Assembly: GCF_964355755.1 (NCBI RefSeq)
Contig: NC_092673.1
Span: 19,341,648-19,405,647, forward strand
DNA length: 64,000 nucleotides
Source of the DNA: Antedon mediterranea
Lineage: Eukaryota > Animalia > Echinodermata
Direction of reading: 5' to 3'
The position numbers and the translations under genes are program-made. Position 1 is the first letter of the stretch. Every line of letters starts with the position of its first letter. A model generated the notes under the pieces. The model made no database searches, was not told the DNA's origin, and saw only the letters and a list, made by a program, of their open reading frames with translations. This document shows positions 605-45,700 of the stretch, in pieces.

Positions 605-763
605 TTCAAAAATACAGTGTGTTCATTTAACAATTATTAATACGGATAGCTTCTAGTGTAAAAGTAAGCCTACACATTCTGTTCTGAAAATATGAAAGGT
701 AAAACATAATTTCATCAGACAGAAACCTTTGCATTAAAGGCTACGACAATTCAATTGCACCGG

Positions 764-1272
764 TATGCTGGCATTACTGAATGAAGATGACCTGTATGCT
801 GGCATTACTGAATGAAGATGATCTGTATGCTGGCATTACTGAATGAAGATGATCTGTATGCTGGCATTACTGAATGAAGATGATCTGTATGCTGGCATTA
901 CTGAATGAAGATGACCTGTATGCTGGCATTACTGAATGAAGATGACCTATATGCTGGCATTACTGAATGAAGATGACCTGTATGCTGGTGTTACTGAATG
1001 AAGATGACCTGTATACTGGTGTTACTGCATGAAGATGACCTGTATGTTGGCGTTACTGAATGAAGATGACCTGTATGCTGGTGTTACTGAATGAAGATGA
1101 TCTGTATGCTGGTGTTACTGCATGTAGATGACCTGTATGCTGGTGTTAGTGAATGAAGATGATCTGTATGCTGGTGTTACTGCATGTAGATGACCTGTAT
1201 GCTGGTGTTACTGAATGAAGATGACCTGTATGCTGGTGTTACTGAATAAGATGACTCCTGTGCTAGCATTAC
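764..1272. repeat. 31-bp minisatellite (~16 copies)
   Basis: Unit ctgtatgctggcattactgaatgaagatga(c/t); period 31 (atgaagatga at 781, 812, 843). Confidence 0.95.
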
Positions 1273-9765: not shown

Positions 9766-10813
9766 ATGGATTCCGAAAGCGATTTAGAAAGTGTTTCATC
9801 AGATAGACCTAGTAGTAGTAGTTCATCATCAAGTGATGAGGAAAATGGTACTGGCCTTATAATACCATATAATTTCGAACCACGTTTTGAGGAACATGAA
9901 TTACAAGACATTGATGAAGAAGCCCAAGGTGAAGATGTTGACATGATGGCTGCACGCCTGGATAATTTAGAATGGTAGGTGTTCCCCTTGTGGTTGTTGT
10001 AGTGAAGCGTCTGCTTGATTGGGCTAGGCCTAATTAATCAATCGAAGCTAGAGCTACCTCAGTGTTTCTAAATTCTAAATATACAATCGGTTTTTTTTTT
10101 TCAAATTTTGTGAGATGCCATACGTTAATATAAAGTCCCCATCGTAATTTGTTTGATGATTATTAGATGGGTCGGATTTGGGACGGTGGTTTAATAATAG
10201 GCTACTCCTTGGGCTTGGGTTTGGTTATAATAATAGATGGACTAGGCCTAAAGTATTAATATTAATATTCTGGTCATAGTTCAAATGGGCATTTGAATTT
10301 CACTTGCTTGAGTGACTGCTGATATGATCAACTAATTATAATCATAATAATTAGTTTTATAATGACTAAATACATGTTTTCATCTTGTTCAGGTGTTCCT
10401 GTGAACATTGCCAAATCATGGGCTCAGGGGAAGAGTGCATCTGCTGCAAGGAGTGCGAAAACACAAGTGCTAAACTTGAAGACAATGTCAATCTGTTCAA
10501 CAATGATGCTCCATTCTCCTGCATCACAAATCATCCAGGTTTCAAGTCTGTTGCTCTTGACCCTTGGGTGCTGGAAGTAGCATGGCTTTCGTATAAGCAA
10601 CACTATGATAAGAAAGTTATCTATAACGGACCAAAAAACAAAAAGTACCGTCACATATCGTACAGACAGTATGCCCGATGGATACATGGATATGTCGGAA
10701 AAAATATCCGTATAGTGCTTCCGTCTTGTGTTGTCTCTTGCATAAGAGCACATTTCCCACCACCTGGAGATGACCCGGTGTTTACAGGATTTAAATTACC
10801 TGACCTAAATTAA
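9766..10813 (+). CDS. KolX-type accessory protein (P2X7 cytoplasmic ballast-like Cys-rich domain), 209 aa, two exons
   Basis: Exons 9766-9974 (GAA TG|gtaggt) and 10393-10813 (ttgttcag|G TGT) total 630 nt in frame. Motifs WCSCEHC, ECICCKEC, CITNHPGF, YRHISYRQYARWIHGYVGKNIRIVLPSCVVSCIRAHFP. Confidence 0.88.
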
Positions 10814-11088
10814 AACAGCCATAGCAGCATTTTAATTTTCTTATACTATTTAGTATTAGTTTAGTAATTTTTGGAAATTAAATAAAGTAATAATTTATAC
10901 AATTTGTAACTCATTTTGATTTTATTGCTTCTCTCATTCATATACATCTCCAATACATTGTTATTGGGGAAAAAATGAAATAGTCTGAAAATACAGTACA
11001 TTGTGAATATTTCAACAATTTTATTATGTCTACAATAATATGCTGTGTTCAATTCATTTATATGATTAATAAACATGGTGTCAAGTTA

Positions 11089-21330: not shown

Positions 21331-23365
21331 GTACCAACAATTCTGTTTTTCAGATTCAGTTGTAGTGTGAGTTTTTATATTATTTTAACAGAATATTTAA
21401 TTTTGACTTACAGAATTGTGCTTTATTTTATGACAATTACAGGATTAGCAATACTTTGTTTGGAAACGTTGGTTTATGGCAACCAGTTGCATCCATTGAA
21501 GTGTTTCTCAACTATTTTATTTTTACAGCAAAAATTGCAATACAATAAAATAACAGATTTTAATTCGAAATTCAGAGGCTTTAAAAGATAATCTTGGTGC
21601 ACACACTACAAGGGTGATAACTATCTTTTGCTCAAATTCTGCCTATGTTATCACTTACCTTTCAGGCCTTTCGTTTAATAGCACATGAATTGTTCAATAA
21701 ACTTGAGTTAAAAGGTAATTTCAAACCTACTAAGGTCTGTTACAAAGGTCACAGAAGTTAGGCTGCTGAATATCTTTGAACAAAACATGTCTGACGTGAA
21801 AATAAAAAAAAGTATATTAGTCTGATAGTACAGTGATACGCCCGTATTCTTTAAACCAGACTTTAGTCGTAGTTCGAACTTCGACTTCAAAAAGTGCTAG
21901 TTCGAGCTACGGGCTCAAGCCCCCCTTGCCAGAGAGACTAGCTTTCCCACCAAATTTTTGTCGGGGAATATAATATACTGCACATTGTTCACGTACACTT
22001 CGTAGCTTCAGCACCTAGAAAACCGCGACGTTCAATTGACCGTGAGTACGTCAGAGGGCTATTGTGCACTTTATGCATTCATTATCGCCAGCGATCTAAC
22101 TACTAAACAAAAGAATGCACTTGTCTGGCCTTTGTACAAATCGTTCGCGTTACTTTGTGTACTGTGTATCGACATACGCTACAGCAAAAACAAGTTATGT
22201 TAATTATTCGTATGTTCACCAATTTTTTAATTTACAATTAATCCTCTGTACCGTGGGGCACCTAAAATAAATATTTCATACATTACTAAACAAAAAACAT
22301 GCTATTTTCGCTTAGCCAACAACATCTTATTATAGTTTAGTTATTAAGTTTTCAATGTCCTGTATGTCATGAACTTCTCACCATACTCAAAGTCCAGATG
22401 GTAAGCTTACATACACTTGCGAGGTATACTACTGAAAATGGTCTACGCTTGCGGACACACACCACCCACCCACCCCAATTAACCACTTTTTTAAGCCTCT
22501 AGGCCCGATGTTTTCAAATTATAAGATGCAATTTTTGAAGACCTGCAGGTCTAGTTTTCAAAATTTTCTTAGGTACTTATAAATTTCATTTCATATTTAA
22601 TTTCATTTCATATTTCGAAGCACAATAAGTGCATTTTCCAGGACCTATAATCAGCTCTAATTTTCAAAAATGTCTTAGCTCAGTTCCTGCCTGTGGGTAC
22701 GTTTTACGTTTGTGTATATTTTCTATGCTACAATATACTCGATAAATATAGGCATATTTTGAACTTTAAAGGTCACTTCATTTTTAAAATTGAAATGGAT
22801 TGCCACAGTCATCATTGCGCATCGGTTTTTTGCACGCAGTATTTTATTTATGCATTATGAAAAATGGAAAAAGTGGCTACCCTAAATCTGATTAAAATTG
22901 CCTCAAATGACGCTAGAACGCGTTACTTCCGGGGGCTTTGCCCTCTAGACCCCCTGGCGGCCCCCTTGCACCCAGCCTAGAGAGAGATTAACAACATTTT
23001 TGACCAAATAACTGATATGTTTTTCTGATACTCACAATTGCCTAGAGGGATGTTTTTGCTGTTTTTTGGGGGTTTAAAGTAAAGTGGGCCAAACTGAATG
23101 GCAGCCATTTGTTGTGTATTAATTAAAGAAAAGTCATAATTGCCGTTTGGGAAAATGAATCCACAAAACAATGTTTCCAGTTGTTGATCTGTCAATCAAT
23201 TATTATGAACAAAATAATTTTTTAAATATTTAAAGATGAGACCATGGCCAGTTTAATATCAACTTGGTGATAAACTTAGATTTTACAATCGCACAATGTA
23301 CACAATATGCTTTATTTGTTTAATAACAAGTATAACAGTTTAAAAATCTAAAGTATAATATGTTG

Positions 23366-24221
23366 TAATGCTAGCACAGGAGTCATCTTCATTCAGTAAC
23401 ACCAGCATACAGGTCATCTACATGCAGTAACACCAGCATACAGATCATCTTCATTCAGTAACACCAGCATACAGGTCATCTACATGCAGTAACACCAGCA
23501 TACAGATCATCTTCATTCAGTAACACCAGCATACAGGTCATCTTCATTCAGTAACGCCAACATACAGGTCATCTTCATTCAGTAACACCAGCATACAGGT
23601 CATCTTCATTCATTAACACCAGCATACAGGTCATCTACATTCAGTAACACCAGCATACAGGTCATCTTCATTCAGTAACACCAGCATACAGGTCATCTTC
23701 ATTCAGTAACACCAGCATACAGGTCATCTTCATTCATTAACACCGGCATACAGGTCATCTTCATTCAGTAACACCGGCATACAGGTCATCTTCATTCAGT
23801 AACACCAGCATACAGATCATCTTCATTCAGTAATGCCAGCATACAGGTCATCTTCATTCAGTAATGCCAGCATACAGATCATCTTCATTCAGTAACGCCA
23901 GCATACAGGTCATCTTCATTCATTAACACCGGCATACAGGTCATCTTCATTCAGTAACACCGGCATACAGGTCATCTTCATTCAGTAACACCAGCATACA
24001 GATCATCTTCATTCAGTAAACACCAGCATACAGATCATCTTCATTCAGTAATGCCAGCATACAGGTTATCTTCATTCAGTAACACCAGCATACAGGTCAT
24101 CTTCATTCAGTAACACCAGCATACAGATCATCTTCATTCAGTAACACCAGCATACAGGTCATCTTCATTCAGTAACACCAGCATACAGATCATCTTCATT
24201 CAGTAATGCCAGCATACAGGT
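23366..24221. repeat. 31-bp minisatellite (~27 copies), inverted paralogue of 764-1272
   Basis: Unit ggtcatcttcattcagtaacaccagcataca. Confidence 0.95.
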
Positions 24222-24377
24222 GCAATTGAATTGTCATAGCTTTTTTAATGCAAAGGTTTCTGTCTGATGAAATTATGTTTTACCTTTCATATTTTCAGAA
24301 CAGAATGTGTAGGCTTACTTTTACACTAGAAGCTATCAGTATTAATAATTGTTAAATGAAGACACTGTATTTTTGAA

Positions 24378-24726
24378 ATGGAAAGGTACGTTTGTTTTTT
24401 ATTTCAAATCCAACAAAAATAACCAGCTCCAATATGTAAATGTTAAAAACAAATTAAAATGTTTGAATAGTTAGCAATACTTTAAAACTTTCTTAAAAGA
24501 TTATGAAATTATAAATATTACAAATAAAGGGCTCATTCTCATCAAATATAATGATGATATTGATTATTTCCATCAATCATCATTTTCATAAAATAGTGTA
24601 ATAAATCATTATTTCTTACATTTTAACAGGAACAAATTAGAAAAAGCTTTGTTGTACAGGGGTGATTTGCAAACAATTAAACAAATTTGTAAGACGCAAC
24701 CAGATCTTGTGAAATCTATCAATGAG
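24378..24726 (+). CDS. Start exon and N-terminal capping ankyrin exon of the ANK-ROCO gene
   Basis: ATGGAAAG|gtacgt (24378-24385) joins ttttaacag|G AAC...AAT GAG|gtataa (24630-24726), giving MERNKLEKALLYRGDLQTIKQICKTQPDLVKSINE. It ends in phase 0 and so joins any downstream GxTPLH exon. Confidence 0.75.
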
Positions 24727-27700
24727 GTATAATATTATCAAAGAAGAAATTTAATTAAAGTTTAAAATTATAGAGATTGTAATTTTCTTTATTATTTATT
24801 ATAACATTTTTTTATATAATGAATTACAATTATTTTTCAATATCACACTAATGATGTTGGTAAGACCTGCATGCACTGATTAACCACATTAGGCTAAAAA
24901 TAATAATATAAATACACACTGATGATGGGGATAACCTGCATGTACTGATTAACCACATTAGGCTAAAAATAATAATATAAATACACACTGATGATGGAGG
25001 TATAACCTGCATGTACTGATTAACCACATTAGGCTAAAAATAATAATATAAATACACACTGATGATGTTGGTATAACCTGCATGTACTGATTAACCACAT
25101 TAGGCTATAAATAATAATATAAATACACACTGATGATAGGGGTATAACCTGCATGCACTGATTAACCACATTAGGCTAAAAATAATAATATAAATACACA
25201 CTGATGATGGAGGTATAACCTGCATGTACTGATTAACCACTTTAGGCTAAAAATAATAATATAAATACACACTGATGATGGGGGTATAACCTGCATGTAC
25301 TGATTAACAACATTAGGCTAAAAATAATAATATAGATACACACTGATGATGGGGGTATAACCTGCATGTACTGATTAACAACATTAGGCTAAAAATAATA
25401 ATATAAACACACACTGATGATGGGGGTATAACCTGCATGTACTGATTAACAACATTAGGCTAAAAATAATAATATAAATACACACTGATGATGGAGGTAT
25501 AACCTGCATATACTGATTAACCACATTAGGCTAAAAATAATAATATAAATACACACTGATGATGGAGGTATAACCTGCATGCACTGATTAACAACATTAG
25601 GCTAAAAATAATAATATAAATACACACTGATGATGGGGGTATAACCTGCATGCACTGATTAACCACATTAGGCAAAAATAATAATATAAATACACACTGA
25701 TGGGTATGGCAAGCCTCAGCTGTCTGGAGTATTCAAAATATTATATTATTATATCAGAGGTCCCAAATTGGGAAAGTCCATTCGCAGGAGATTTTGTCGT
25801 GAACCACATTCAATTCGTCGGGGCGTCGAAAGTCAACGCGCAGGGAATCGAAAATCAACACGCGTGTCGTTTACGTCTCTTAATTAATTAACTAAATATG
25901 TTACATATACAGTATATACAATATTTACACATAAGTTTGCTTAATTTTTACATAGGTTTATCCATCAGTATTTTTACATTCTTATTTTTTTTATGGACAC
26001 ATCCTCAGTACAAAGAATTAAAAAAATATATACTGTATTTTAACTAAAATTCAGTATATAAAATAATTTAACTTAATTACATAGGCACAGGCCTAGCCTA
26101 GGGCTTCTACTAGGCCCTAGCTAGCTACCATTTTAACCCCCCCCCCCCCAAAAAAAAAATAATAATAAGAAATAACTATTCCGAATCCGTCTTATGCTAC
26201 ATTACGCGAGTTAACATATTATTTCAGATGAAAAACATTGAGTTTTATATTGTTTTATCCATACGTAATTACACTGGCATTAAAGATATAACATTAAAAT
26301 GTAGGCCGTTTATGAGCTATTTCGCCGATTTCTTATCGCTGGGAAATTCCCCACCATCGACATCGATCGAGGAGTAGGCCTAGGCTAGAATAGAGGCCTA
26401 GCGTGCATGCCGGAACGGGTGGATTATTGCTATATAAATAACAAGTTTGAACAAAAGAGCTTACAACAATCTTAGGTAAATTTTTATTAAACGTAGGCCT
26501 ACTTGCTTGGCGAATCCATATGCTCGTATTATCGGATCGTACAGTAAAACCAAATAAAACACCGCCTCAACAACCTCGTGCGATGTGCGATCTGTTGTTC
26601 TTTGCAGCGGATCAACATTGGTAGAGTCCATTAATTATGAGGGTGTTTAAAAATGTAATAACTATTAAAAACGTGTCTCAATCACTGTGTAATCAAAGCG
26701 TTTATTTAGTTAAAACTTGGATCCTCCCAAAATTGATAATCGCGTATTCCGGTGACCACGTGATTGATTCACGGTTGGTTGCACGCTCTTTTTTTTCTAC
26801 GTCCGGCGTGTAGTAACCGTGCATGTTTATATTATTGTTACGGTTTAACAAAGGCAGTGCATACAAATAAAAATACAATAATAGACCACAGAGACTGCAT
26901 GAATAGACATTGTTTCAACATCCTGCCTCACTTTTGTCTAGTTATTTATTGATTATTGTTGACCTGGGCTGAGCCTGGGTGTAACCGTAAATCAATTTGG
27001 CCAAAAATATGGGGAAATTTGAAAATGCGGTAAAAAAAATCAAAATGCGGTAGAAAACGTTGAGATAGCGGTAGCGCGGTAGATGGGTTCTAAAAGCGGT
27101 AGACTACCGCGAGTAGCGGTAGACTTGGGACCCCTGTTTTCACGCTACATCACAAGAGAGGACTCAATCAGATATAAAGCAAGCAGCAATTTTAGGACTA
27201 TAGTTTATAGGTCCCAGCTGCTGGACCCAAAAAACATCTGGGAAAAGTGTCTATGAGGGTTCACGGTTGAACGATTTTGGATTCTTGCCCTTTGATTGGT
27301 TGACTTCAATGCAAATGGTTTAACCTAAATTTGTTATCGTATCTAGTTTAACTTAATTATGATATTAGTTTCATTGGGTGTTAAAAATCAGTACCAAAAG
27401 TATGTACCAACTTTCTCTACCATTGAGTAAATATTCTAGAAGTTGCACTTAATTTACTGAAATTTCTCATTACGCAAATTTATATATAAATTCATTAAAC
27501 TGCTTATTGGCCTCATATTTTTAATATCTGAACATTTGTTTGTACAATTTTATGAAAGTATTTTTTCTCATTACGCAAATTTATATATTAATTAAGTAAT
27601 AGGCTAACAAATCTCTAGATCTGATCCATGGTAAGATAATCTATTAAACCCAATTTCACATAATGTCTGTTGTCGGTATTATACACCAGCAAATTTGCAA

Positions 27701-30700
27701 AAGAAGGTAATGTACAGGGATTTGCTAGTGTAATAGGCTAACATTATATAGATATGCTGTGGTAAACCATTCTATTTTGTTCTACTCATTTATTAATAAT
27801 GATAATTATGATTATTTATCACAATATTTAGTAGCAATTGTTGTTGTTTGTATTGAAAAAAAAAACAAACAATTTTACATAATGTCTGTTGTCAGTATTT
27901 ATAAACTTTATTATGATTCCTTTCCAGAATGGTGACACTCCATTACATTCATATCTGGGGAGCGGATATAGATCTACCTTAGAAATAGTGACTTGTCTCA
28001 TTCAGCATGGGACACCAGTAGCATTGCAAAATAAGGTAATGTACAGGGATTTGCTAGTGTAATAGGCTAACATTATATAGATATGCTGTGGTAAACCATT
28101 CTATTTTGTTCTACTCATTTATTAATAATGATAATTATGATTATTTACCACAATATTTAGCAGCAATTGTTGTTGTTTGTATTGACAAAAAACAAACAAT
28201 TTCACATAATGTCTGTTGTCAGTATTTATAAACTTTATTATGATTCCTTTCCAGGATGGTGACACTCCATTACATTCATATCTGTGGAGTAGTATGTATC
28301 CACCTACCTTAGAAATAGTGACGTGTCTCATTCAGCATGGGGCACCAGCAACATTGCAAAATAAGGTAATGTACAGGGATTTGCTAGTGTAATAGGCTAA
28401 CATTATATAGATATGCTGTGGTAAACCATTCTATTTTGTTCTACTCATTTATTAATAATGATAATTATGATTATTTACCACAATATTTAGCAGCAATTGT
28501 TGTTGTTTGTATTGAAAAAAAAAACAAACAATTTCACATAATGTCTGTTGTCAGTATTTATAAACTTCATTGTGATTCCTTTCCAGTCTGGTGACACTCC
28601 ATTACATTCATATCTGAGGAGTGGATGTACTGCACCTACCTTAGAAATAGTGACGTGTCTCATTCAGCATGGGGCACCAGTAGCATTGCAAAATGAGGTA
28701 ATGTACAGGGATTTGCTAGTGTAGTAGGCTAACATTCTATAGCAGGCCTCGAATTTTACCGCGGCCAGTGCCGTCGGTGCCCTCCCAGTTGGCCTCAATG
28801 CCCTCGAAAATTAATAGCACCCACGGCCACTACTGGCCTGCCCTTTTTTTGCGTTGGCCGTGAGTGCCCTTCCCGAGTTTTACCACAATAAAAACCACTA
28901 AAGTAGATAGAAAATAATGTCAAGAATATCGGACGAGGCGCAAAACTATCGCCTGTCTTCGTTGCAAGGGGATTTCCCTAAACGCATTTAGAGAAAACAT
29001 CGAACATATTTATATAACCAAAACAATATCGTCCCGGCCGCCGTGCGTGGTAAATAATGGTATAGATAGTACATTAAAATACAGGGGTGTACACTTTTAA
29101 TAATAAAGCTAAAAACGTTCCTCGATCGGAGGTCACTGAAAGTATTAAAGTCGCACCACCCCCGCCTCAATAATCGAGCTAGCCGCCTTCGTTGAAAAAA
29201 AAATTACACGCACTCCTTGTCCTAGCCAGCCTATCCTCCCGCCGCCGATCCGATCAACAAACACACGCGATTCAATACATTGGGAAAACAATTCCATTTG
29301 ACGCACACGCACCCTCTGATAAGAAATTTCACACGACGTCGTCGTACGTGTGAGAGTACGAAGGATCGGTCGTTGGAAAAACAATTCCTTTTGACGTACA
29401 CGCACCCGCTGATATGAAAATACCATGTGCGTTCCTGCATGGTGTAGTCCATTCCATTATACGTGTAAAATTAGGGGTGTCAACTTTTAGTACTAAAGTT
29501 AAACCGGTACCTCAACCCGAAGATCGTTGGAAGTATATTGTATTTATATTTTATCGCACCCACCTCAATAATCCAGCCGACAGATCATCGAAAAATCTTG
29601 TTTAACGACGTCGTACACTAAATTAACAAACGCGTTTTTACCGAACTCAAGGAAATGGTATAGTCCACAATACACGTGCAGAAGGCTAAACGAGAGAGAG
29701 GGGTTGGCGTCCGTCCGTCCGTGTTTTGAATTCTTATGAATATGGATTATACTAACAAAAAAGCTTCAGAAATCGAAACTCGGAAAATAACAATAATTTA
29801 TATTCTACAACATAATGTCATTGGCTTGATTTTTACCGTGGTTAACACTCTGTGTATGAATAGTTGTAGTTAAGGCCTACAAACAAATTGTTTTTGTAAC
29901 CTGTGTTCTCCGTCCGCTACGCCTTTAGTGCTGCTAAGTGCTTGCTGTTGTTAGGGTCTTTACCCGTTGGGCCTGGCTTCACATGCCTTTTTTTGATCGC
30001 ATTGTTTGAAACTAAACGAAACAACTGTGAACGCTAAACATCGTACCTTAATAATTATTATTTATATGGATCGTAAATACACGTAATATTTATATGAAAT
30101 ACAAAAAGATGTAGACAGTCCTCTCCTACTACTACTACGCAATCTGATGAATAGGGGAAATACCCCCAAAAATGTTTGCGGGTAGAATTTTTTTTTTTGA
30201 AAAAAATTCCACCCGGGCGCTCAACCGGAAACAAGCTATTTTTAAATTTTGGCCTATTTATTAAAATATTTTTTAATTTTGGCCTTGGTGCCCCTTCGAT
30301 TTAAAACAAATGGCCTTGGTGCCCTCCCATTTGGCCTTGGTGCCCCTCAAATCAATGAAAACCGGAGGCCAAATGGCCTTGCCCCTAAAATCCCCAAATT
30401 CGAGGCCTGCTATAGATATGCTGTGGTAAACCATTCTATTTTGTTCTACTCATTTATTAATAATGATAATTATGATTATTTACCACAATATTTAGCAGCA
30501 ATTGTTGTTGTTTGTATTGACAAAAAACAAACAATTTCACATAATGTCTGTTGTCAGTATTTATAAACTTTATTGTGATTCCTTTCCAGAATGGTAACAC
30601 TCCATTACATTCATATCTGGAGAGAAAATATCCACATACCTTAGCAATAGTGACTTGTCTCATTCAGCATGGGGCACCAGCAACATTGCAAAATAAGGTA

Positions 30701-33700
30701 ATGTACAGGGATTTGCTAGTGTAATAGGCTAACATTCTATAGATATGATGTGGTAAACCATTCTATTTTGTTCTACTCATTTATTAATAATGATAATTAT
30801 GATTATTTACCACAATATTTAGTAGCAATTGTTGTTGTTTGTATTGACAAAAAACAAACAATTTCACATAATGTCTGTTGTCAGTATTTATAAACTTCAT
30901 TATGATTCCTTTCCAGTATGGTGAAACTCTATTACATATATATCTGTGGGCTGGATATACTGCACCTACCTTAGAAATAGTGACGTGTCTCATTCAGCAT
31001 GGGACACCATTAGCATTGCAAAAGAAGGTAATGTACAGGGATTTGCTAGTGTAATAGGCAACATTCTATAGATATGCTGTGGTAAACCATTCTATTTTGT
31101 TCTACTCATTTATTAATAATGATAATTATGATTATTTACCACAATATTTAGTAGCAATTGTTGTTGTTTGTATTGTAAAAAAACAAACAATTTCACATAA
31201 TGTCTGTTGTCAGTATTTATAAACTTCATTATGATTCCTTTCCAGTCTGGTGACACTCTATTACATTTATATCTGGGGAGTGGATATAGACCTACCTTAG
31301 AAATAGTGACTTGTCTCATTCAGCATGGGACACCATTAGCATTGCAAAATAAGGTAATGTACAGGGATTTGCTACTGTAATAGGCAACATTCTATAGATA
31401 TGCTGTGGTAAACCATTCTATTTTGTTCTACTCATTTATTAATAATGATAATTATGATTATTTACCACAATATTTAGTAGCAATTGTTGTTGTTTGTATT
31501 GACAAAAAACAAACAATTTCACATAATGTCTGTTGTCAGTATTTATAAACTTTATTATGATTCCTTTCCAGGATGGTAACACTCTATTACATTCATATCT
31601 GGGGAGTGGATATAGACCTACCTTAGAAATAGTGACTTGTCTCATTCAGCATGGGACACCATTAGCATTGCAAAATAAGGTATTGTACAGGGATTTGCTA
31701 GTGTAATAGGCTAACATTGTATAGATATGCCGTGGTAAACCATTCTATTTTGTTCTACTCATTTATTAATAATGATAATTATGATTATTTACCACAATAT
31801 TTAGCAGCAATTGTTGTTGTTTGTATTGACAAAAAAACAAACAATTTCACATAATGTCTGTTGTCAGTATTTATAAACTTCATTATGATTCCTTTCCAGG
31901 ATGGTGACACTCCATTACATTCATATCTGAGTAGTGTATATGCACCTACCTTAGAAATAGTGACGTGTCTCATTCAGCATGAGGCACCATTAGCATTGCA
32001 AAATAAGGTAATGTACAGGGATTTGCTAGTGTAATAGGCTAACATTGTATAGATATGATGTGGTAAACCATTCTATTTTGTTCTACTCATTTATTAATAA
32101 TGATAATTATGATTATTTACCACAATATTTAGCAGCAATTGTTGTTGTTTGTATTGACAAAAAACAAACAATTTTACATAATGTCTGTTGTCAGTATTTA
32201 TAAACTCCATTTTGATTCCTTTCCAGAATGGTGACACTCTATTACATTCATATCTGAGGAGTGGATACCCTACCTTAGAAATAGTGACGTGTCTCATTCA
32301 GCATGGGACACCAGTAGCATTGCAAAGTAAGGTAATGTACAGGGATTTGCTAGTGTAATAGGCTAACATTCTATTCTATTTTGTTCTGGTTTACCACATT
32401 ATTTAGCAGTAATTTTTACTGTATTGTCTCATATTATGGCATATCTGCAGCATTGCAAAATAGGGTAATGTAGGCTTACAAAGAATTGTCAGGACAATTT
32501 CACATTTTATTGTTATCAGTATTTATAAACTTCAACTTCAGTATCAATTAGCCTCCATATTAATCAATAGTATTACTACCTCAAAGAGTAGTATTATTTA
32601 ATCAGACTTACAGATATAGAATTCTCAAGTGTTTGATTTTTTTCACATTTTTCTCTTTTTACACATAGCACATTCTAACAAGTTTGTTTTGATTTAGATA
32701 TTCATTTATAAGTCAACTATAATTGTAATGTGTTGTTGTTGTTTTAATATTTCATTTGTATCTGGATAGTATCCAAATATTATTTTCTTTGAAAGTTTAT
32801 AGTAAAACTATTTGTTGTTTTATATTATGGCTCAAACATTTTAACACATCTACCTACTGTTCCAAAGTAAACTTTTATTCAATTTATCTCTCTCTCTCTC
32901 TCTCTCCTCCATCTTTCAATGTTGAAGGCGGTAGACTATAAACAGCAGCACTCAAGTTTTGGTTTGGATACAGGAGTTATAGGTGGCGCACTGTACAAGT
33001 TGATGTCATTTATTAGCAAATAGTAATTTCTATTCACGTCCTAATTTACAACCAATGTTAAAAAATAGTAAATCTATGTGTTATCACATGATGCTCTTTC
33101 ATCCAATCTCTAGATGGTAAATGTTTGAGCCATGACATAATACTGTATGTATGTGATGCATAATTAAAGTGTGTTATATTGTATATCAATAATTTCTCAA
33201 AACTACTAATAACTAAACCCATTTTTTTAATAGGATGGAAATACACCTGTCTCTCTTTTAGAAAGTAACAGGTGGATAAAGGAGCATAGTAAAACTGAAA
33301 TTTTAAACTTCTTAGAAGGTAAGTGAAGTTTTAATTATTGAAATTTTAGGATCAACTAGTTTCATTGCAAACGATAACAATTTGACTTCTTGTTCCAAGT
33401 GAAGAAGAATGTCCAGATAAAGAAAATTAACATTTATGATATATCATTCACAGGTTTATTATAGATTAAATAATTCAGTGGGATAGTAGTATACATGGAA
33501 GTTGTGATATGTTGCAAGATGTAAATTATTTTGCTATTAATACGATAAAAATAACACAAAAACGCAAACTTTAAAATTCCTTTGAAATAAAAATATTAAA
33601 TAAATCATTTTTCAAATCAAATCAATCTCTTTATTCAATACATCAAAACAGTACACATAACAAAAATAAAGAGATTTTAATGATGATGATGATGATTTTA

Positions 33701-36700
33701 AGATGAAAGGGACCTTCAATAAACCTCAAGGGGCTTTTGATAGGAGGCTTTACTTTAAACTAGTTACAATAATCGGATGGGGGATATGCATTGTTAAGGA
33801 ATATTTGAACTTTATTAATTGCACATAAATGTAAAATGTAGATTTTTTTTTTTTAATGTAATCTATTTTATATATAATGTACAATTGGTATTCGCATTCA
33901 AGGCAAACAATTTACGATAGGAGGAGATAAATATTGAATATAAAAATCTAATTTTCTTGTTAAATCCCAGTTTTTGTTTCCACAATGGATGAATTTCCTT
34001 CACACATTTTAAATAATAATTCGTCTTCTTCGAGGAGCTGAATCACCGGATTTTCAGCGCGCCGTGCGTACCAGGTTACTACCGTAAATGATGGCGCTTA
34101 ATTAAAAGTTCTTAGTAGATATAGCTCTATATCTATTAGCCTTAAAAGTTATCCCCTTAATAGATTTAGCTCTATTACCTATTAAGCACCTACTAATAAG
34201 TAGATTTTAGGTAGAATTTAGATAGTTCCTAATAGGTTTTACCTCATTAGCATAATTCAAAACCCCCACTAATAGTGTTAGATAGTTTTTTCACTATTTT
34301 CAATCTGTGAGTAACACAGTTGTATGCATCTATCTATTGTCTACTATAATAGCTATACCATGGGCTACCAGCAACCTATTAATAGACATAAACAAACTGA
34401 TAATAGCCAGTAACTGTTAATAAGCTATCTATTTTATACAATAGATAGATATGGACTACCAGATAGCTATTAGAAATCTATGAGTATCATATCTATCTAT
34501 CTACTGTCTACTTATTATAGCTATACAAGACTACCAATGACCTATCAATAGACTATAAAGAAACTGATAATAGCCAGTTAAATATTAATCAACTATCTAT
34601 TTTATAGCTGGGAAGTAGTCGTTCCATCATTGACTCATTGAGTTAAAATCCTTAGTAGGCGAGATAAAAAGGTCTACTAAAAAACTACTAAAAATAGAGC
34701 TATTTCTCCTTAAGTCTACTTAAATCTACTAATTTTTTTACTATGGGTAAAACCAATAGACAAATTCAAACTCTTCCTTCCCACATTCGCATTCGAGGCA
34801 AACAATTTACGATAGGAGGAGATAAATATTGAATATAAAAATAAAACATTTTCTTGTTAATCCCATTTTTTGTTTCCACAATGAATGAATTTTCTTCACA
34901 CATTTTTAAGCCAGCTTAAGAATACTATTTTTCTGTATGTAAAATTAAGCATCATACATGTGTTATTCTAAACACCAAGTCCCACAAAGCATAACCAAGC
35001 TCTACCAAGTGTATAAAGAACAGTGCCCTTATTGTAGGCCTTTAAAAATGCAATTCCAGGTCTATATTGGCAAAATTCAGCCCAAACCATGGTGGGCTCA
35101 AGTTCAAGTTATCTTTATTGTGTTTTCACACAGGTATAAAAACAAAATTGGTTACTGGTCATAAAACAGAATATAAATTAAAACATTTAAAAAGTTCAAG
35201 GCATATTAAAAACTTACGATAGGTGGTCAATAATTCCTACTGCCAAATTGTGAATCATACCAGTTATTCATTTCAGGATTACTTTATTTTCACTTTACAC
35301 AGTGAAACCATCCTAATCAACCGTATGTTGCTAGAAACGATTTAGATTCAGGATCTCTGTCAAAAAATGTTGCATAACGCCTATATGTTTGGATGAGTTT
35401 GAGTTCCACACATTTTTTAGGACATTAATAACTGTAGTTGTTAACTGTATACATTTTAGTTTAAAAAAATACATTATTATTATAGTATCCAGAATGAATG
35501 AGATTTACCATTTTCATGTACAGTCGATTGCTTGTACACAGTCACCCACAAGCTTTTATATAACCTTATACCATTGAAAAAGTTTAAAGATACCATATGA
35601 CAATTCAAGAGTTTTGCCAAGCTGTGACTTTTAATATAGTGTTTTTTATGAAAATATGTAATATGTAATATTTTTGTTTTGGTATTTTTTTAGATTTACC
35701 AAGTACTGTTGATGAGCAATTTCAAACACAATTTCAGAAACCGACAAGTGACAAACAGAAAACAAAACTTCGTAAGCCAGAGAGTGGTGAGTTTAATAAG
35801 AATCACAAGAGCTGCTGTATGTTGTATGATTGTATCTATATATAAATTTACGTAAGGGCAAAAACGGTAAATCGTGCGTTATTTCTAGAATGTTTACTCG
35901 ATGGTATATAAAGTTGGTTCGTACTTTCGGTACTGATTTTAACCGCCTGATGTAACCCTGTTTACTAATTAAATTGAGTTCGATTATTAGTTATTGACGA
36001 TTAAAACGAATTTAGGTTCAACGATTTGCCCCAAATAGGGGTGTTTTCCGATCGTGGTATACACTGTCTAATGGATGTCAATTTGAAAAATACCCGCACA
36101 CAATAATACGAGGACACTTCGCATTTTCCTATCTCCTCCTACGATAATTGTTTTTAATAGCTGAAAACCGGTTGACCAGTTCGAGTACAGTATCATGATG
36201 TTGAAGACAGGCCGATTTTCTTTAAAAAATGCTATTTTGATACATGTAATATACGTTTTTACAAATGTATTGATTTGTGATGAATGGAACATTCCAAATT
36301 ATTTTGTTTAACCATAGAGGTATAGATTTAGATTTATGGGCCCCCTTGGAGAATAAACATAAATAGTATTGCAATGCTGTACAATACTGTTAAGGTATTA
36401 ACCACTTTTGATCGCAATTTGAATCGCAAATTTCTTACTGTGAGTGTTGGTACTGTTAGATATAATATAAACAAATATACAAATAAACTTTATTACTGTG
36501 AGTGTGGGTAGGCCCTACTGTTAGATTATAAACATATAATATACAAATAAATAAACGTTATTACTGACAGTTGCTTCTCAACGTTTGTATTAATTAATAA
36601 TTTAAAAATATATAAACGTACGTAGTGGTGTATCGTTACATGTACTTTACTATTTCAATCGACTATGACAGTGAGAGTTTTAACAAAGTATTAAATCGTA

Positions 36701-39700
36701 AATGTTTTACTGTATTTAGTGGTATATTATTTATAGGCCTATAAAACATTAAAAACAATATTTCGTTACTGAGTGGATAAGAATATATTTTAAAATGTTT
36801 CCTCTTTGTACCTATCTTCTTCCCCCATACCTCAACCCTTAATGTTACATACAAAACACAAATTGGGTTTGTTTAAATGAGTCCAAATAAAAAAATTTGA
36901 CTCATTTTGTTTCTCTCTCGGAAGTAATTCCCAGGGTGCTAATTTTAGCTGACTACATAAATCATCGTGTATATTTATTCGTTTCTGTAAACGACAATGT
37001 ATTATAGTCCTGCAGTACGTACATTTGAAATCTCCATTTTTTTCTCGCTGGAAAATACTGTGTATTTGAGAACCATCTGTAGGCACGGTCGACCTAGATA
37101 GTACGCGAGCGAAGCGAGCGTGCCATCTAGTCTATATATAATTTAACACAATTGTGATTAAAATGGGATTTCAGTAAGGAGAGAATTAGACGCTAATGTT
37201 ATTTAAAAAAAGCATTATTTCTGTGCAGTACTGTAAAAAAGGTAAAGTCGAAACCTAAGCTAATGCTAACGGCCGTGGTGCCCATCTCCATTTCCTTAGC
37301 GTTTGGGCCAGACTCCACTAAGTGTGTATGTTCGTGGGGGGTACGCCACTCCTCCCGCACAAACGAGTCTGATTTACCTTCCCAGTACTTTTTACATACC
37401 GGTACCCATTTCTATCACCTGGGTGGGGAGGAACAATGTGGATAAAGAATCTTGCTCAAGGACTCAACACTGCAGTGACCGAGCCGGGGCTTGAACCGAC
37501 AACCTCTTGATTGCAAGTCCAATGCTCTAACCACTGCGCCACAGTGCTCCAATAGTACTGTAAAAAGGCGAAAAAGTGTGCAACTAATAACAAATGGAGA
37601 GATTTTATTTATCATAAATAAAACAAACAGTTGATTGTTTCCATCCAAAATACTGTAATAATGGAATGGAGCTAGTTTGCAGATTTATGTGGCATGCTTG
37701 ATTGATGATTTTTTTTTTTAACTTTATTTACTCCAGATGTTTTAAAAATCTATTAAAATCTTGATTCAATTTTCAGATATTCCATCTGATATTGCTGCTC
37801 GTGAATTAGAGTATCAGGAAGCTTACAAGGAAGCTTTGAAAGGAGGATCTGTCGCAGTCAATCTTGGAATGCTTAAGGTGATTGGACAGGAAGGAGTGGG
37901 TAAAACATGCCTCATAAATGCCTGTCTTGGAAAGATGTAAGTAGTTGGACAGTAAAATTGAAATTACAAAATACATGTAGGTACTGCCTAATTATAACAA
38001 TAATAGATAATAGAATTAAATTTTAACATTGTTTTGTAATTTTAAATGAAAGATCATTTTAATTGTTGACTAAATAACTGATTTAAAATGTGTATTTTAT
38101 AAATAAAGACTATTGAAATAGTAACTACTGGTATCTATAATTAAAAAGAGAAAATTTAATTTTACAGCACTAAAAATGAATGACATTCATTGTTGGTTTC
38201 AAATTATTATATTATTATTATATGTATCTCAGATTTGAGGAAGAACATAAAGTTACAGATGGCATAGCAGTGATAAGGACTGTAAGCACAACATGGACAG
38301 AGGCTAAAGCTGATAGTGGTAAACATGAATACAAATTAGCATATTACTCTTCCCATCATCATAGTCAATGTAACAATATTTATCTTTGATCTCATTATCA
38401 TAGACACAAACAGGCCCACATGGAGACATAGAATGGAATTCAATAAATGCATACAACTGTAGTATGGTGTCAACAGTCATATTTTCACATACATTACAAT
38501 TGTTACTTTATGATCCCTTAACATGCAATCTATTGTTTGTTGATGTACTGTAATTGTAATTTTACATTAAATAATCAATCAGTTAAAGTATTGTCACCTA
38601 TTAATGTATCTGCTGAAATAATACATACAAATGTCTTTTTTCTGTACAGGTAATCCTTCAAAACAGTATACAAAAATCGTCACTGACAAACTGAGAGAAA
38701 AGAAAACCAAAGACGTATGTCAGTGTAATGAAAACATAAAATGAATAAAGTAGCACCTACAGGACTATTGCAAACCAGACACTTACGCACGTATTCTTAA
38801 ACCGGACTGTAGTCGTAGTTCTAGCTAAAACTAAAAAAATGACGTCATTTTAATTCATAAACCGAACTTCAACTAAATCACCGACTAAATCAGGCCAACC
38901 TCGACTAAATCGAGACGGATTTTGATCGATTTTTTTAGTCCTGGAGGGGGCAGGCTAAATGGTCGACTAAATGGTTTTTAAACGATGTTTATAAAAAACG
39001 TAACAGTCATTGAGTTGTTATATTGGCCAGATATTGAAGAATGAAATATCTATATTTATATTAGCTTAATTAAATATACATTGGTATAAGTTATAATAAT
39101 GAAAATCATCTTTATTTACAACTGTATACAAATTACATTATTTTCTTCGCGCAAGTCCGACTTGAACTACGTCACGCCATAGCGACAATGGGAGATGCGG
39201 CAATTCACCACGCGATGGAATGTTTAGGGGGCCTAGCGCTTTCTTGTCACGCTAGGAAGTGCGTGGTTCGTCGCGATCATACTTTGTTGGAGGCCTAGAA
39301 AATATGAAAGTTACCGTACCGCCATGGTTCCTAAATATATTTTAAAGATTTTGTTTGTTGTTAATCAAAAGTACTTCACTGTTAAATTAATACTGATCTT
39401 GTTCTAATAATTAACGATTAAAATTATTTTTCATGTATAGTCCTGATGCGTAAAAAGTTTTGTAAGAAAATGGAAAGTGATATCAATGCGCAAAATTTCG
39501 TCTGCTCCTCAAATACTCTCTTGTCATTGGCCAATGTTTAGCCTTTGTTACCCAGACGTGTGCAACTCGACTAAAAGCTCGACTTCATTAAGTCGAACTG
39601 CAAACTTCGACTACTTCGTTTTTTAATCGAATTTTAAGTAATAGCTCGAACTACGACTTTTTCAAGTCGAACTTCGAACTACGACTAAAGTCCGGTTTAA

Positions 39701-42700
39701 GAATACGGGCGTAAGGGTTTCTTTCTAAATGAATCAATGAGGCATTATGATTCTTTTTCAATCATTTTATAATCCAATTTACTTAAAAAATTAAGTTGAT
39801 TTTGCTTTTGAGAGTAAATAATATTAGTTTTCTCTTATATTAAATTGTAAACAATACTGTATTTAACTTTGAATAAACATTTGTTTCTTTTTTATATCCA
39901 TTTATTTTTTTTTTATGTGTCAGATTGACATGAAACCACCTATAGATGATGAGGATGGTATTGTTGTTGATGACAACAATGGTGATTACAAAAATGATGG
40001 TATGTAACTTTCCATTAAATTCTAATTATTATTATTATATATTACATAGCCTATGTAAATACGCGAACGTGATTGGTTGAAACTGCATCACATGACTACC
40101 GCTGCGAGGATAGTAAATCGTATATATCCTCGAGAACGATGATATTGACTGAGTAATTTTCCCGTAATTATCGTGTCCCCTGTCATTAATCATATAAATT
40201 ATCGAGTACGATGATATTGACTGTGTAATTTTTGTGTGCAACATTCGCGTTTGCCGATAAATAAACAAAACTATTTAAACTATGCATACATAGCGCCCTC
40301 ATTTATTTTTAGTCCTCCCAAGAGGTGATGAAACACCGTTTGTGATTGGTTAATACTCACAGTAGTATCGGGTACGCGCGCGACGCACTGAACATCTGGT
40401 GATGATTCGACTCGAAAGAAGACGAATTATTATTTATTCGGCCTACCTGATAATATTATTATTATTAATGTAGGCTTATTGATGGAAATTCTTCTGTTAT
40501 TATTTAAACGACCTAGGCTAGTGAATATGTTATTGTCAAGGAATCATTAATTAGTAATTATCTGTATATTATTCTTCGAAAGGTAAGGTGTCTGGGCAGC
40601 TTGTTTACATACAATACAAAAAGGAGGCCTACCTAGCCTAGCTACCCGACCCAGCAGATATTCTACTTATTGTAATATATATATTATATCGGTAAAATAT
40701 AAGATTAGACATCCCCTCGGGAATGATATTAAGTTCTTGGGAATTATATATTTCCCTCAGCTGGCGCTTCGGGAAATATATATTCCCTCGAACATAATAA
40801 TATTCCCTCAGGGATGTCTAATCTTATATTTAGCCTCTAAGCAGTCAATATCTGTATAATATTACATTTTTTGTAGTCAAAACACTAATTTGCAATTATC
40901 TGTTTGCAATTTCTGTCATATTAAGTTTGTGCTGTAGTTATTTGAAACAGATTATTAATTAGATTTTCCAATTTAAAGTAACTTTTAATTTTTCTATAAA
41001 ATTATTAAATTTATGTGATCAGAGTTGGAGGTAAAGCAACCTATCAAGTGTAACAATTATGGTGACATACTTTTCTACCTCTACTCTGACTATAATGATG
41101 ACAACAATGATGACGACTCGGTGTAACAATGATTATGAAGACTGCAATGATGATAATGACAACAATGATGATGACTCGGTGTAACAATGATTATGAAGAC
41201 TGCAATGATGACAACAATGATGACGACTCGGTGTAACAATGATTATGAAGACTGCAATGATGACAACAATGATGACGACTCGGTGTAACAATGATAATGA
41301 TAATGAAGACTGCAATGATGATAATGACAACAATGATGACGACTCGGTGTAACAATGATTATGAAGACTGCAATGATGATAATGACAACAATGATGACGA
41401 CAATGATGACGACTCGGTGTAACAATGATTATGAAGACTGCAATGATGATAATGACAACAATGATGATGACTCGGTGTAACAATGATTATGAAGACTGCA
41501 ATGATGATAATGACAACAATGATGATGACTCGGTGTAACAATGATTATGAAGACTGCAATGATGATAATGACAATTACAACAATGATGATAATCAGAACA
41601 ACTATAACAATATGTTAATGACTTTTACAATGATTAAAATAATGATGCTTGTTTACATGTGTTGAGAGTGACCAAATTGTGTTTCCACTACAGATACTGA
41701 TAGAGCTACTGAAGCTATTCCATTTGATACAGATCAGCAGTTAGATAAAGATGTAATCAAGAAACTTGAGGAAAAAAAGGAGGTCCCATTGGAAGAAACA
41801 TTTAACATCTGGGATCATGGAGGTCAATTAATATACCATGGTATACATCGCGTAAGTTATAATATATGTATTTGCCTTGAAGTTAATATTATATTGAAAT
41901 TGTTTAAATACTTTGTACAGAGCCAGTTAAAAGAAAATGTCTCTGTATATACTAACATAATGGTATGACCAAGGTTTAATTTGTTCATTCAGTAATCGCA
42001 AAATTCTTTCCATGGTACTGCTTTATATAAATTGGTATTACAAATTTTGCCTACGTCAACAAAAAAAGTATTTTCAGTAACTGTTTTCAATCACTGATTT
42101 TAACAGTGTTATATGAATTTGTACTAGAAAAATGCTTTAATAAAAAGAGTATCAATAGTAAATGTATAAACACAGTTTATAAAAAGACAAATAAAATGAT
42201 ACTTATTTATTAAGCCTTAAAGCATATTAATCAAATATTTGAATAAAAACAAATTGTGTTTTTGCAGATGTTCATGACATTACAAGCACTTTATATTGTA
42301 GTGTTCGACCTAAGTGTAGACCTCAATGATCCTGCTGTTTATATTGATTCCAATGGAGTAAGTATTTTGCTATATATTTTATGCATTACAAAGAGTTTTA
42401 TTTCATACCTTCCAAATGAGCTGCATACATTTACATATTTGAAACCTAACCGTTTTGATTTTAATTGTGGTTAGAAATCATTTACTTCTTCATTTCATTT
42501 TTAATTGAACAAAGATAAATGTTTTTTAAACTAATCTTTTTTTTTTGACAGGAAATGTATCAACATCATTGGACCAATCTCCAGTTCATATTATCTTACA
42601 TCCTGTCAGTTTATTCTCATAGTCGTATTGTGGAAGAAGATGAAGAGAATGAAGTTCACAAACCAACTATCCTTATTGTGGGTACACATAAGGGTAAGCT

Positions 42701-45700
42701 TGGTGAGACTGAAAAAGAACAAAATTATGAGGTTAATACTTACATTATTAAAATTAGCAATCAATCAAGTATACATTTCTGTTCTAAAAGCTAATGTAAA
42801 AAAACTAGCTACTAAGGTACTGTATCGAATACATTCATATCAAAAGTTTTTATATGAATGTATTCTATACAGTACTCTAATAGGACTTGAAGTATTTAGA
42901 TATTATTTATAAAAAAAAAACAGTTTTTACCCCATGTTTTCATTTATTTAAATTGTTTACAACCAGGCACAGAAGGCCTTTAAAAAGATTCGAGATGCAC
43001 TTAAACAGAAAGAGTTTATAAAACATGTGTTCCACGTATATTTTGCCGTTGAAAACAGCCAAGAAACTACAGATAAGAGCTTTAGTGATCTCAAACAAGT
43101 TATTGATGCACTTATGACTGCTTTAGAGAAAGAAGTTCCTTTAAAGTGGATGCGTTTTCGATGTGATCTACAAGATCTAAGGAGAAAAAAACATTTTTCT
43201 TTGTGTCCAGTTAAAGAGGTAAATTTAATTGGCATCATTCCTCAGTGTTTTGGTTTCAGAATAGAAATTTTTATTTTTTATTTATTTATTCAATTTTCTG
43301 CCATATACAATACAAAGAAAACAAAACAATTATAAAAGGAGGAAAGGAAAGACCAAACAGGTGCTAAACACCTATGCTAGTTGGTCAACCCAGAACATAC
43401 AGAGCACAGAAAGAAAGAGATAAATAAAAAAAATAATATTACGTCCTACAATTAAAGCATCTATAAAATATTTTGGAAATAGTAGTATTTAAAAAAGTAT
43501 AAACAAAAGACTCTACCCACTATTATATATAACTACAGTACTATATAATAATATTGATTATATTTTTTATTCACTGCTCTAAATCTGAATGGTAAAATAA
43601 TGTTAATGTAATATAATATAAAATATATAATCCTATCCATGCTGTTATGGTTTCCTATCTGAAAAAATCATGAGTATTTTTTATGGAATATTTGCATTGC
43701 AACACTAACAATGCATTCTGTGAGAAAAATTGCAGTTACGTTTCCCCCATCCTGAGAGTGACGTTTTCCTTCAGATCCAAAATTATACAGTACATGTTTT
43801 CAAGTAAATTTCAAAACATTTCAGGCGGTAAAGGACAAAACTAATGTTGGAAATGTATACCTACCTTTGGTTTAATATTTTTGATATTTTATTTGTATCT
43901 GAATTGTAAACAATTTTGTCTTTAGCTCAAAATGATGGCAAGTAAGAATGGTATTGCAGATGAAAAACAACAATCCTTTCTTCTTAACTTTTTGTACGAT
44001 CTTGGTGAAATTGTTTACAGGCCTGACAACAAATTATTGAAAGATAAAGCGGTGTTGGATCCGATGCAGCTGGTTGAAATTGTTACTACATTTGTGACGG
44101 TCGTTCCTCCCGAATTTCCAGTAAGTATTCTCATGAAAATGTTAATGCAGTGTTCTGTGAGGAAATAATAGAGGTACATGTGAATTCCTATAGGTGCTAT
44201 AGTATCAAAAGCAATATCTGATAGTTTCATTAGTTTAACATTGAGGGGTATATTGTATATTAAATGTAAACCATGTTATTGCATCTACAAGTCTTTATAA
44301 AGGTAAAGGTAAAGGTATTCATATTTGTCCTCAAGCTTAACTGGAAACTGAGGAAATTCGGATTAGGCCCTCCACGGACCCACGGCAGCCAGCAGTGCAG
44401 CGCCTACCAGATTAGCACACCGGGAGACGATCCCCTACTCTTTTCGAATAGTGTACCAAGTTCTTTAACGTGCACCAAGTTCTTTAATGTGCATCCTTTC
44501 AGATTCTAAATTGTTTGATAACTTAATAAACACAACATTCTAAGTATGGCTAATTGGTGGTGTTTTTTAGCCGGCCATGTATATCGATGCATTTGATAAA
44601 CTTGACAAAGGCATACTGGAAGAAAAGTTGTTGCGAAAATTATGGAAAAAGCGTGAAGTTGATGACGGAAAGAATTTTGAGTTTCTTGTAGCACTGATGA
44701 TTCAATTAGGTTTTATTTGTGAAAGGAAGACAACCAGCAGCCAAGATGTGGCAAGTACATCTACAGTAGGTTTTGTTCAGTTATCTTTTCTAACATGTTT
44801 TGCATGCAAGATTGTGTAAACAAAAATTGTTTTGGTATGATACATAATTGTTGAAATTTTACAAAAATTTCAAAATATTTGTAAGGTTATGACATATTTT
44901 GGTTAAACATCCTGCTGAAAGATGTTTTTATCATATACAGGAAATGATCTTTACTTATTAAAAGAAATCTAAATGGGATTTTATAAATCAACAATTTCAG
45001 GAATCTGTTGGAAAGCGATCATTCTTTGTGCCACTACGCCTTGCTTTCAAGACATCAAGTGAAGTGAAACCAGTGTCTGATGATTCACAATCTATCAGTA
45101 TCTATTACGACTTTAAGGGATATCTGCCAGATGTATTGTTTCCATATATGATTATTGATTTCCTCAACAAATTTCAAAAGAAAGGTGTTGACCCAATACT
45201 CTTGTATAACCATGCTGAACTTTACTTCGATCAAGATCATAATGTGACCTTATCTCTTGTGAAATTTGTGACTATGGAGGATGAAAGAAAGTTCTTGTTA
45301 AAGGTACTGTATCATATAATTTGTTGTGAATAAATCATAATTTAATCTAAGCATAAACTCAAATTAAAATATCAAAGCATCACTTTTCTTCTTTTTTCCA
45401 GGTGACTATTAAAAGAACTCCTGCTTGTAATGAAACAAGTAATGATGAACCCTCTTCTGAAGCATGTCAAGAGGTTTGTTATCATTTCATATATGCAAGG
45501 GCGGATCTAAATTTTCAAGGTGCCCTTTTTCAGAGGTTCAATATTTTAATCGTGTGACATATGTGGCAAATTCCATTTACCATGTCTCCGACCTTTAAGA
45601 GGGAGTGTGGCCTAAAATGGTTCAAATACTTAGGCTCGGAAGTGCCCTTTTCTTCTGGGAGGTAAACATTTGAGGCATGTAACATTTTGATAGTGATAAT

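Follow-up and report, generated by a model that had tools for sequence, protein, structure and literature searches.

Ankyrin Exon Array and Its Host Gene

The stretch of the genome of the feather star Antedon mediterranea analyzed here (contig NC_092673.1, 64,000 nucleotides, hereafter the window) carries, at positions 27928-32331, a tandem array of nine ankyrin exons within a predicted gene (24378-50890) whose model reads, in order, ankyrin array, Roc-COR and tandem death effector domain (DED). The units of this array have probably been shuffled and diversified in the germline, and would form the front of a predicted ankyrin-Roc-COR-tandem-DED intracellular sensor signaling death through its DEDs.

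All nine exons lie on the forward strand, are 105-111 nt long and multiples of 3, are bounded by AG and GT and have phase 0-0, so that a single intron phase is used throughout and one ankyrin repeat is encoded per exon in 9/9 cases. They are exon 1 (27928-28035, 36 residues), exon 2 (28255-28365, 37), exon 3 (28587-28697, 37, also supported by consensus alignment), exon 4 (30590-30697, 36), which is the most divergent unit, exon 5 (30917-31027, 37), exon 6 (31246-31353, 36), exon 7 (31572-31679, 36), exon 8 (31900-32007, 36) and exon 9 (32227-32331, 35). The repeats are ankyrin repeats and not leucine-rich repeats (LRRs): the Pfam Ank model was matched by the three units scanned (1, 3 and 5; E 2e-5 to 6e-3), two of them above the curated cut-off. 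The initial annotation had described a patchwork of variants shared among the units, and when these were re-read all seven patterns turned out to be exact. TLLH is found in units 5, 6, 7 and 9, GSGYR in units 1, 6 and 7, TAPT in units 3 and 5, the PLAL tail in units 5-8, an S start in units 3 and 6 and a D start in units 2, 7 and 8, while the GAPATLQ tail is shared by units 2 and 4, which differ at codon 23 (ACG vs. ACT). Every loop indel among the units consists of whole codons.

The gene model comprises 30 exons with canonical GT-AG introns throughout and a single open frame of 1316 aa, all on the forward strand. Upstream of the array lie the predicted start-codon exon (coding part of 8 nt, 24378-24385), which gives the same N-terminus as the A. 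mediterranea proteins P0001, P0029 and P0030 (homologs are cited by working number), and the N-terminal capping ankyrin exon (24630-24726), identified by tblastn (79% to residues 3-34 of P0001) and by its AG/GT boundaries and phase 0 end. Downstream, the C-terminal capping ankyrin exon (33234-33318) has identical junctions in A. mediterranea P0172, and a linker exon (35694-35786), 90% identical to P0005, is also present in P0172. In this RefSeq model, 86% identical, the chain from the ankyrins through C-cap and linker to Roc is connected at the junctions that the window model uses. The Roc GTPase-like domain occupies model exons 14-20 (37777-42731) and contains the P-loop GQEGVGKT, which we take to be a predicted GTP-binding motif of a Roc-like GTPase. 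Exons 21-26 (42967-46061) encode the COR region and the segment following it. In the Pfam scan the single-exon open reading frames (ORFs) of the window gave no Roc or COR match; the homolog P0011 (80% identity across model residues 452-1310) passes the Pfam cut-offs for both Roc and COR-A, and P0017 that for COR-A. By its Roc-COR module the gene is a Roco, a class assigned indirectly through the homolog P0011.

Two short charged linker exons (46871-46906 and 47350-47391, spanning 46871-47391), placed by AG/GT boundaries and frame only and the least certain part of the model, precede the exon with the predicted tandem DED fold (50172-50711) and the last coding exon with the stop codon (50871-50890). 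The AlphaFold2 model of the DED exon (mean predicted local distance difference test 89.7) predicts two death-fold helical bundles in tandem, and the top Foldseek matches are the tandem DEDs of caspase-8 and cFLIP (E 5e-4, template-modeling score 0.71-0.73, about 180 residues); the Pfam DED match of this exon (E 0.0027) is below the cut-off. No protein kinase segment is present in the 1316-aa model and nothing in the window matches the N-terminal part of P0025 that bears the kinase; similarly, no NACHT or NB-ARC was found in Pfam scans of the window ORFs or of the close homologs. The gene is therefore not an NLR, for lack of NACHT/NB-ARC, and not a DAPK or LRRK, for lack of a kinase.

Two further observations concern introns of this gene. 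A 58-bp tandem repeat of Asp/Asn-like codons (41098-41630) lies in the intron beside an acidic Roc insert, and in paralogs (P0003) repeats are expanded within that insert. A high-copy element (35835-37130) occupies the intron before Roc; contigs with an empty site occur in runs X1 and X5, so the element is polymorphic or absent in paralogs.

Homogenized Introns and Degenerate Units

Each ankyrin exon is preceded by one of nine homogenized introns of 218-221 nt (27707-32226, forward strand), with a mean p-distance of 2.5% as against 10.5% for the exons, the insertion in the intron that separates units 3 and 4 being removed before alignment. This insertion (28743-30409) is 1667 bp long, is present in no other unit, contains no ORF of at least 120 aa and bears 14-bp terminal inverted repeats, with CTATAG duplicated at its flanks. 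The target duplication appears to be a 6-bp palindrome, and a 2- or 4-bp reading fits too. The element is likely a non-autonomous DNA transposon and may serve as a marker to date later duplications.

Remnants of further units were detected by blastn at both ends of the array. At the 5' end, a degenerate unit (27651-27706, forward strand) consists of a 3' piece of intron joined to an exon tail, with the donor kept (27707) and the acceptor motif unmatched; 3' of exon 9, scrambled pieces of another unit lie at 32390-32532 on the same strand. Moreover, an AT-rich near-palindrome of about 22 bp, which may be due to chance, is present in each unit intron (for instance at 28121-28145).

Intron similarity tracks array position, neighbors being more alike (Mantel r 0.38, p 0.010), whereas exons show no such trend (r -0.20). 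This contrast would fit a process in which local duplication and conversion homogenize the unit while something keeps a patch of the exon diverse. Outside the variable codons, synonymous sites have changed about as little as the introns (pS 0.029 vs. 0.022), and the similarity of the introns may result from homogenization as much as it promotes it.

Probable Reticulate History of the Units

The claim that no single duplication tree explains the units holds: when all 135,135 trees were compared, even the most parsimonious one required 20 extra steps (consistency index 0.57); for introns alone the minimum is 5 and for exons alone 14. Across the units, 138 of the 253 pairs of informative sites are incompatible. 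With the poly-A tract masked, incompatibility affects 11/15 intron-intron, 61/120 exon-exon and 50/96 mixed pairs, and thus involves intron sites, as well as one synonymous site. The conflict extends to shared two-nucleotide variants, those of units 3 and 6 at codon 1 disagreeing with those of units 3 and 5 at codon 15. At short range the picture is different, as judged with three distance thresholds and two filters (all pairs, or pairs in different codons only). Exon pairs at most 5 bp apart are never incompatible (0/11, p 0.001; different codons, 0/7, p 0.006), while incompatibility is found in 5/23 pairs within 10 bp (p 0.002; different codons, p 0.018) and in 9/29 within 15 bp (p 0.015; different codons, p 0.072). 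This decay of compatibility within about 10-15 bp points to short conversion tracts or to many intra-exon crossovers.

A clonal history could imitate such a pattern, if tandem duplication were followed by parallel mutation under strong selection or at hot spots, and several results weigh against recombination. The pairwise homoplasy index (PHI), a check proposed in the initial annotation, is not significant (6 settings, p 0.13-0.49). The overall correlation between distance and incompatibility is not significant either (r 0.08, p 0.2). At codon 5 the alternation between P and L is also found in P0120, a paralog from A. mediterranea, so that some homoplasy may be parallel mutation. Finally, an extreme hot-spot null model, deliberately generous in that only the observed sites mutate and do so at the observed rates, attains the intron homoplasy in 0, 2, 4 and 20 of 200 runs, depending on the setting. 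The PHI test may have had little power here, because 22-23 sites are informative and compatibility is gone within about 15 bp. Furthermore, even the hot-spot null attains the exon homoplasy in only 0/188, 0/200, 1/200 and 5/200 runs, and clonal simulations with uniform rates never reach the observed values, either for introns (0/150 in each of 5 settings) or for exons (0/150, 0/150, 0/150 and 0/125), the harshest of these settings allowing only 20 intron or 30 exon sites to mutate. A clonal origin must also accommodate the incompatible intron pairs and synonymous site, and the two-nucleotide variants in conflict, and independent recurrent mutation would not predict compatibility at short range. 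A purely clonal history is therefore quite improbable, and taken together we interpret these results as genuine reticulation over very short distances, probably combined with a degree of parallel mutation.

As to the mechanism, near-identical introns had been proposed as the substrates on which cassettes are swapped. Reticulate exchange among units stands, but swapping of whole cassettes as a sufficient mechanism does not: crossovers limited to introns would keep each exon tree-like, and the 111-bp exon alignment contains at least 4 breakpoints besides the 61/120 incompatible exon pairs. Whole-cassette swapping through introns alone is thus ruled out.

The introns might instead be conserved for combinatorial or mutually exclusive splicing, with diversity arising mainly at the RNA level, an explanation compatible with germline shuffling. 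Nine phase 0-0 exons allow any subset to be joined in frame, each intron carries the short near-palindrome, and conservation of the acceptor end of the intron extends to A. mediterranea P0172, whose model begins by reading through it; moreover, the repeat exons of algal ROCO genes are reported to be alternatively spliced (PMC11378527). On the other hand, the intron variants are scrambled and track array position as homogenization predicts, one intron tolerates a 1.7-kb insertion, and mosaics within exons are left unexplained, which makes conservation for splicing a low-probability account of the introns.

Still less likely is a somatic rearrangement of the array in immune cells giving each individual its own repertoire. 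This idea, the boldest suggestion of the initial annotation, is prompted by the architecture, and a similar hypothesis has been raised for the ROCOs of Ectocarpus (PMC3341825). One assembled haplotype is a record of germline history; in the window neither a recombination-signal motif nor a reservoir of inverted spare exons was seen, and the substitutions lack the single-base bias expected of a targeted mutator. Indeed an adenine- or cytosine-specific mutator was considered and discarded, since the 38 derived exon alleles, inspected by eye, have no clear bias.

Variation on the Predicted Binding Face

Variation among the units is concentrated in codons 1, 3, 5, 8 and 11-17 and a few tail codons, while helix 2 is nearly invariant (one substitution in 99 residues). 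In a structure model of the homolog P0030, the last part of helix 1 and the inter-helix loop, which has an insertion of 2-4 residues, correspond to codons 11-17. Positions 2, 3, 5, 10, 13 and 33 are those randomized in a designed ankyrin library (PMC4308713), and the randomized positions of designed ankyrin repeat proteins (DARPins) lie on the concave face, as stated in general terms in two sources (PMC8229355; PMC8683736). In the array, variability at these six positions exceeds that at the remaining 27 (p 0.007). The array combines internally conserved repeats (framework identity 0.87) with a variable predicted binding face. Five of the first 11 positions vary in P0120, which has its own gene-specific framework, and they are the ones that vary in the array (rho 0.997).

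Divergence is pN 0.136 and pS 0.045 in exons and 0.022 in introns. Counted as derived alleles, which are non-independent events, 33 nonsynonymous changes in about 80 sites face 14 changes in 209 intron sites (p 2e-9), making nonsynonymous alleles about sixfold denser. Nonsynonymous against synonymous change within exons gives only p 0.053, with 5 synonymous alleles, four of which fall in the multi-hit codons 11-15, and synonymous sites for their part change 2.7 times as fast as introns (p 0.06). The value of 0.053 leaves room for real recombination in a redundant array that drifts under neutral or relaxed evolution, with variation at positions tolerated by the fold and no immune role. The surface positions of any ankyrin tolerate change, the remnant units, transposons and fragmentary paralog models are suggestive of a turnover zone, and the immune role is deduced from architecture. 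However, relaxation cannot raise exon divergence above that of introns, the frame is intact over 30 exons, and the same sites are variable in P0120. On balance neutral drift seems unlikely, though it deserves slightly more weight than a clonal origin.

Repeats of one gene resemble each other more closely than they resemble those of other genes, both for the window gene (0.87 vs. 0.71-0.82) and for P0120 (0.86 vs. 0.58-0.75). P0030 departs from this concerted pattern, its repeats being as similar to the window repeats (0.82) as to one another (0.81).

Paralogs and Transcripts

A search with the COR-region exon found 28 proteins, all 28 from A. mediterranea and 63-97% identical; 24 of these sit on one 36-Mb contig, and the family is therefore large and clustered. 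Among its members, P0120 has 8 ankyrins, Roc, COR and a weak DED. The two repeats of P0172 are new combinations of residues found in different window units. Annotated relatives from A. mediterranea and Anneissia have 1-11 repeats, with loops stretching repeats to 51 aa, counts that rest on automated and often truncated models. The A. mediterranea protein P0125 shows an eleven-repeat array whose alternating repeats have this same inter-helix loop expanded to 20 residues, in a model devoid of Roc. The ENA proteins P0130 and P0132-P0138 have a Roc-like annotation and the same repeat register as the window array, with 12-18 ankyrin motifs in those examined and up to 78% internal identity; they are a possible independent occurrence in another lineage.

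A head-to-head paralog begins within the window itself. Its 5' end (1-2857, reverse strand) is an inverted duplication of 21749-24953, 93-94% identical, with the N-cap exon at about 255-351 and the remainder beyond the window. In this N-cap exon 5 of the 6 differences are nonsynonymous, four of them within 7 codons, and about 5 differences are found in the 243 bp of intron upstream of it.

As for expression, run X5, from another sample and guessed to be RNA, contains three contigs in which an exon end is joined to an exon start, a joint that X1, X6 and X7 lack, and four further contigs run on into an ankyrin start. These joints indicate that members of the family are transcribed and spliced, though the transcripts need not come from this locus.

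Several points count against the proposed sensor as a whole. Ankyrin matches occur in only 10 of 150 Roc-COR/DED relatives; others begin with a DED or a kinase. The RNA nature of X5 is a guess and its joint may derive from a paralog. Among the joints listed there is no read-level splice joint from ankyrin to Roc. A separate rival is a chimera produced by assembly or polishing of a collapsed repeat, given that among the contig pieces listed none crosses the whole array to confirm the order and phase of its units. Such an artifact is extremely unlikely: the differences keep the frame, they fall on the codons that also vary in paralogs annotated independently, and a number of alleles turn up again in other samples and in a second organism (X5, X6, X7).

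Contig depth over the unit is far above that of the flank; it is no measure of copy number and was not used. Species-fixed intron differences in X6 and X7 were likewise set aside, as the candidate sites vary in X1 too.

Comparison With Known Systems

The closest parallel is offered by the brown-algal LRR-ROCO genes of Ectocarpus and kelps, for which shuffling of repeat exons and an immune role have been proposed (PMC3341825; PMC11378527). In both, a repeat sensor stands ahead of Roc-COR, each repeat has its own exon with one phase throughout, repeat exons recombine, the family is clustered and expanded, and an immune role is proposed. In the algae diversifying selection acts on the binding face, whereas here the nonsynonymous excess is strong relative to introns (p 2e-9) and borderline relative to synonymous sites (p 0.053). 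The host here is an animal, the repeat is ankyrin and not LRR, the phase is 0 and not 2, the exons encode 35-37 aa with a loop of variable length, the introns are homogenized (2.5%) and the C-terminus carries a tandem DED. Spare or inverted non-coding repeat exons, an algal feature, are absent from the window, which holds only the same-strand degenerate remnants at both array ends. The window gene lies outside the algal LRR class, yet appears to work likewise.

In the fungus Podospora, NLRs carry ANK, WD or TPR repeats of high internal conservation (PMC4986451; PMC13449251). These share with the window gene highly similar ankyrin repeats, concerted evolution, a variable inner helix/hairpin face and the linkage of repeats to an NTPase and a death-type effector. 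The window gene differs in having Roc-COR in place of NACHT/NB-ARC, the order sensor-GTPase-effector and introns that split the repeats. Repeat-number polymorphism has been shown in Podospora, while the window array is known from one assembled haplotype.

Within the echinoderms, the immune family of sea-urchin SpTransformer (Sp185/333) genes displays mosaic sequence and intra-exon recombination without clear hot spots (PMC5491942). Clustering and proposed gene conversion are further points in common; SpTransformer genes are unrelated two-exon genes with exchange between genes, whereas here exchange takes place among the one-exon folded repeats of an intracellular GTPase. TIR proteins of Aplysia are reported to carry Roc-COR, and the passages covered mention no ankyrin arrays (PMC9334734).

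Among animal proteins, our model is also comparable with the Roco proteins DAPK1 and LRRK2, as their layouts are commonly known. They combine ankyrin repeats and Roc-COR in one protein, and DAPK1 ends in a death-fold domain. These two features, ankyrin and Roc-COR, are shared by the window model, which has no kinase; DAPK1 and LRRK2 are conserved single-copy genes and are not known to carry homogenized hypervariable cassettes.

In the literature covered, judged by titles and the openings of abstracts and with most subscription papers outside that coverage, no cassette array of this kind was described for an animal ankyrin-Roco gene. We consider the feature real and non-trivial, a known diversification strategy which here occurs in an animal and involves a novel combination of sensor and effector.

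Proposed Mechanism and Implications

According to the mechanism that we propose and consider likely, units of about 330 bp would misalign in the germline, and unequal crossover would add or drop whole repeats in frame. Short conversion tracts would reassort surface residues while homogenizing introns and framework, and diversifying selection would retain new predicted binding surfaces. By its architecture, the array may bind cytosolic non-self or altered-self ligands; ligand binding by the ankyrin face would then switch the Roc-COR module, and the switched protein would nucleate a DED death platform with caspase-8 or a FADD-like partner. The protein is likely a fast-diversifying immune sensor, similar to those proposed for brown algae and fungi.

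To our knowledge, most Roco proteins have no known input. An ankyrin input with a receptor-like signature, coupled to a predicted caspase-8-like tandem DED output, would provide a testable circuit from sensor to GTPase to death. It would also extend the repeat shuffling reported for brown algae and fungi to an animal related closely to chordates, in which both the repeat and the effector are different. Since the array measures just 4.4 kb, the question of germline, splicing or somatic diversity, raised for algal ROCOs, is testable with single long reads. A bolder and rather doubtful possibility is that feather stars possess a receptor family akin to a natural DARPin library, in which repeats are reassorted fast, surfaces differ between individuals and possibly between immune cells (through splicing or somatic recombination), and the receptors are wired to a caspase-8-type death platform. 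If true, this would be a deuterostome system of repeat-based variable receptors independent of NLRs, immunoglobulins and variable lymphocyte receptors.

Neighboring Elements

Mobile elements were observed elsewhere in the window. Between the two head-to-head genes, ORFs at 10370-15261 match MULE/ISL3-like transposase and P2RX7_C. On the reverse strand, at 58289-62646, ORFs of a Copia-type long terminal repeat retrotransposon (gag, integrase and reverse transcriptase) are split over two overlapping frames, and a 185-bp direct repeat, 99% identical, is found at 58289 and 62455.

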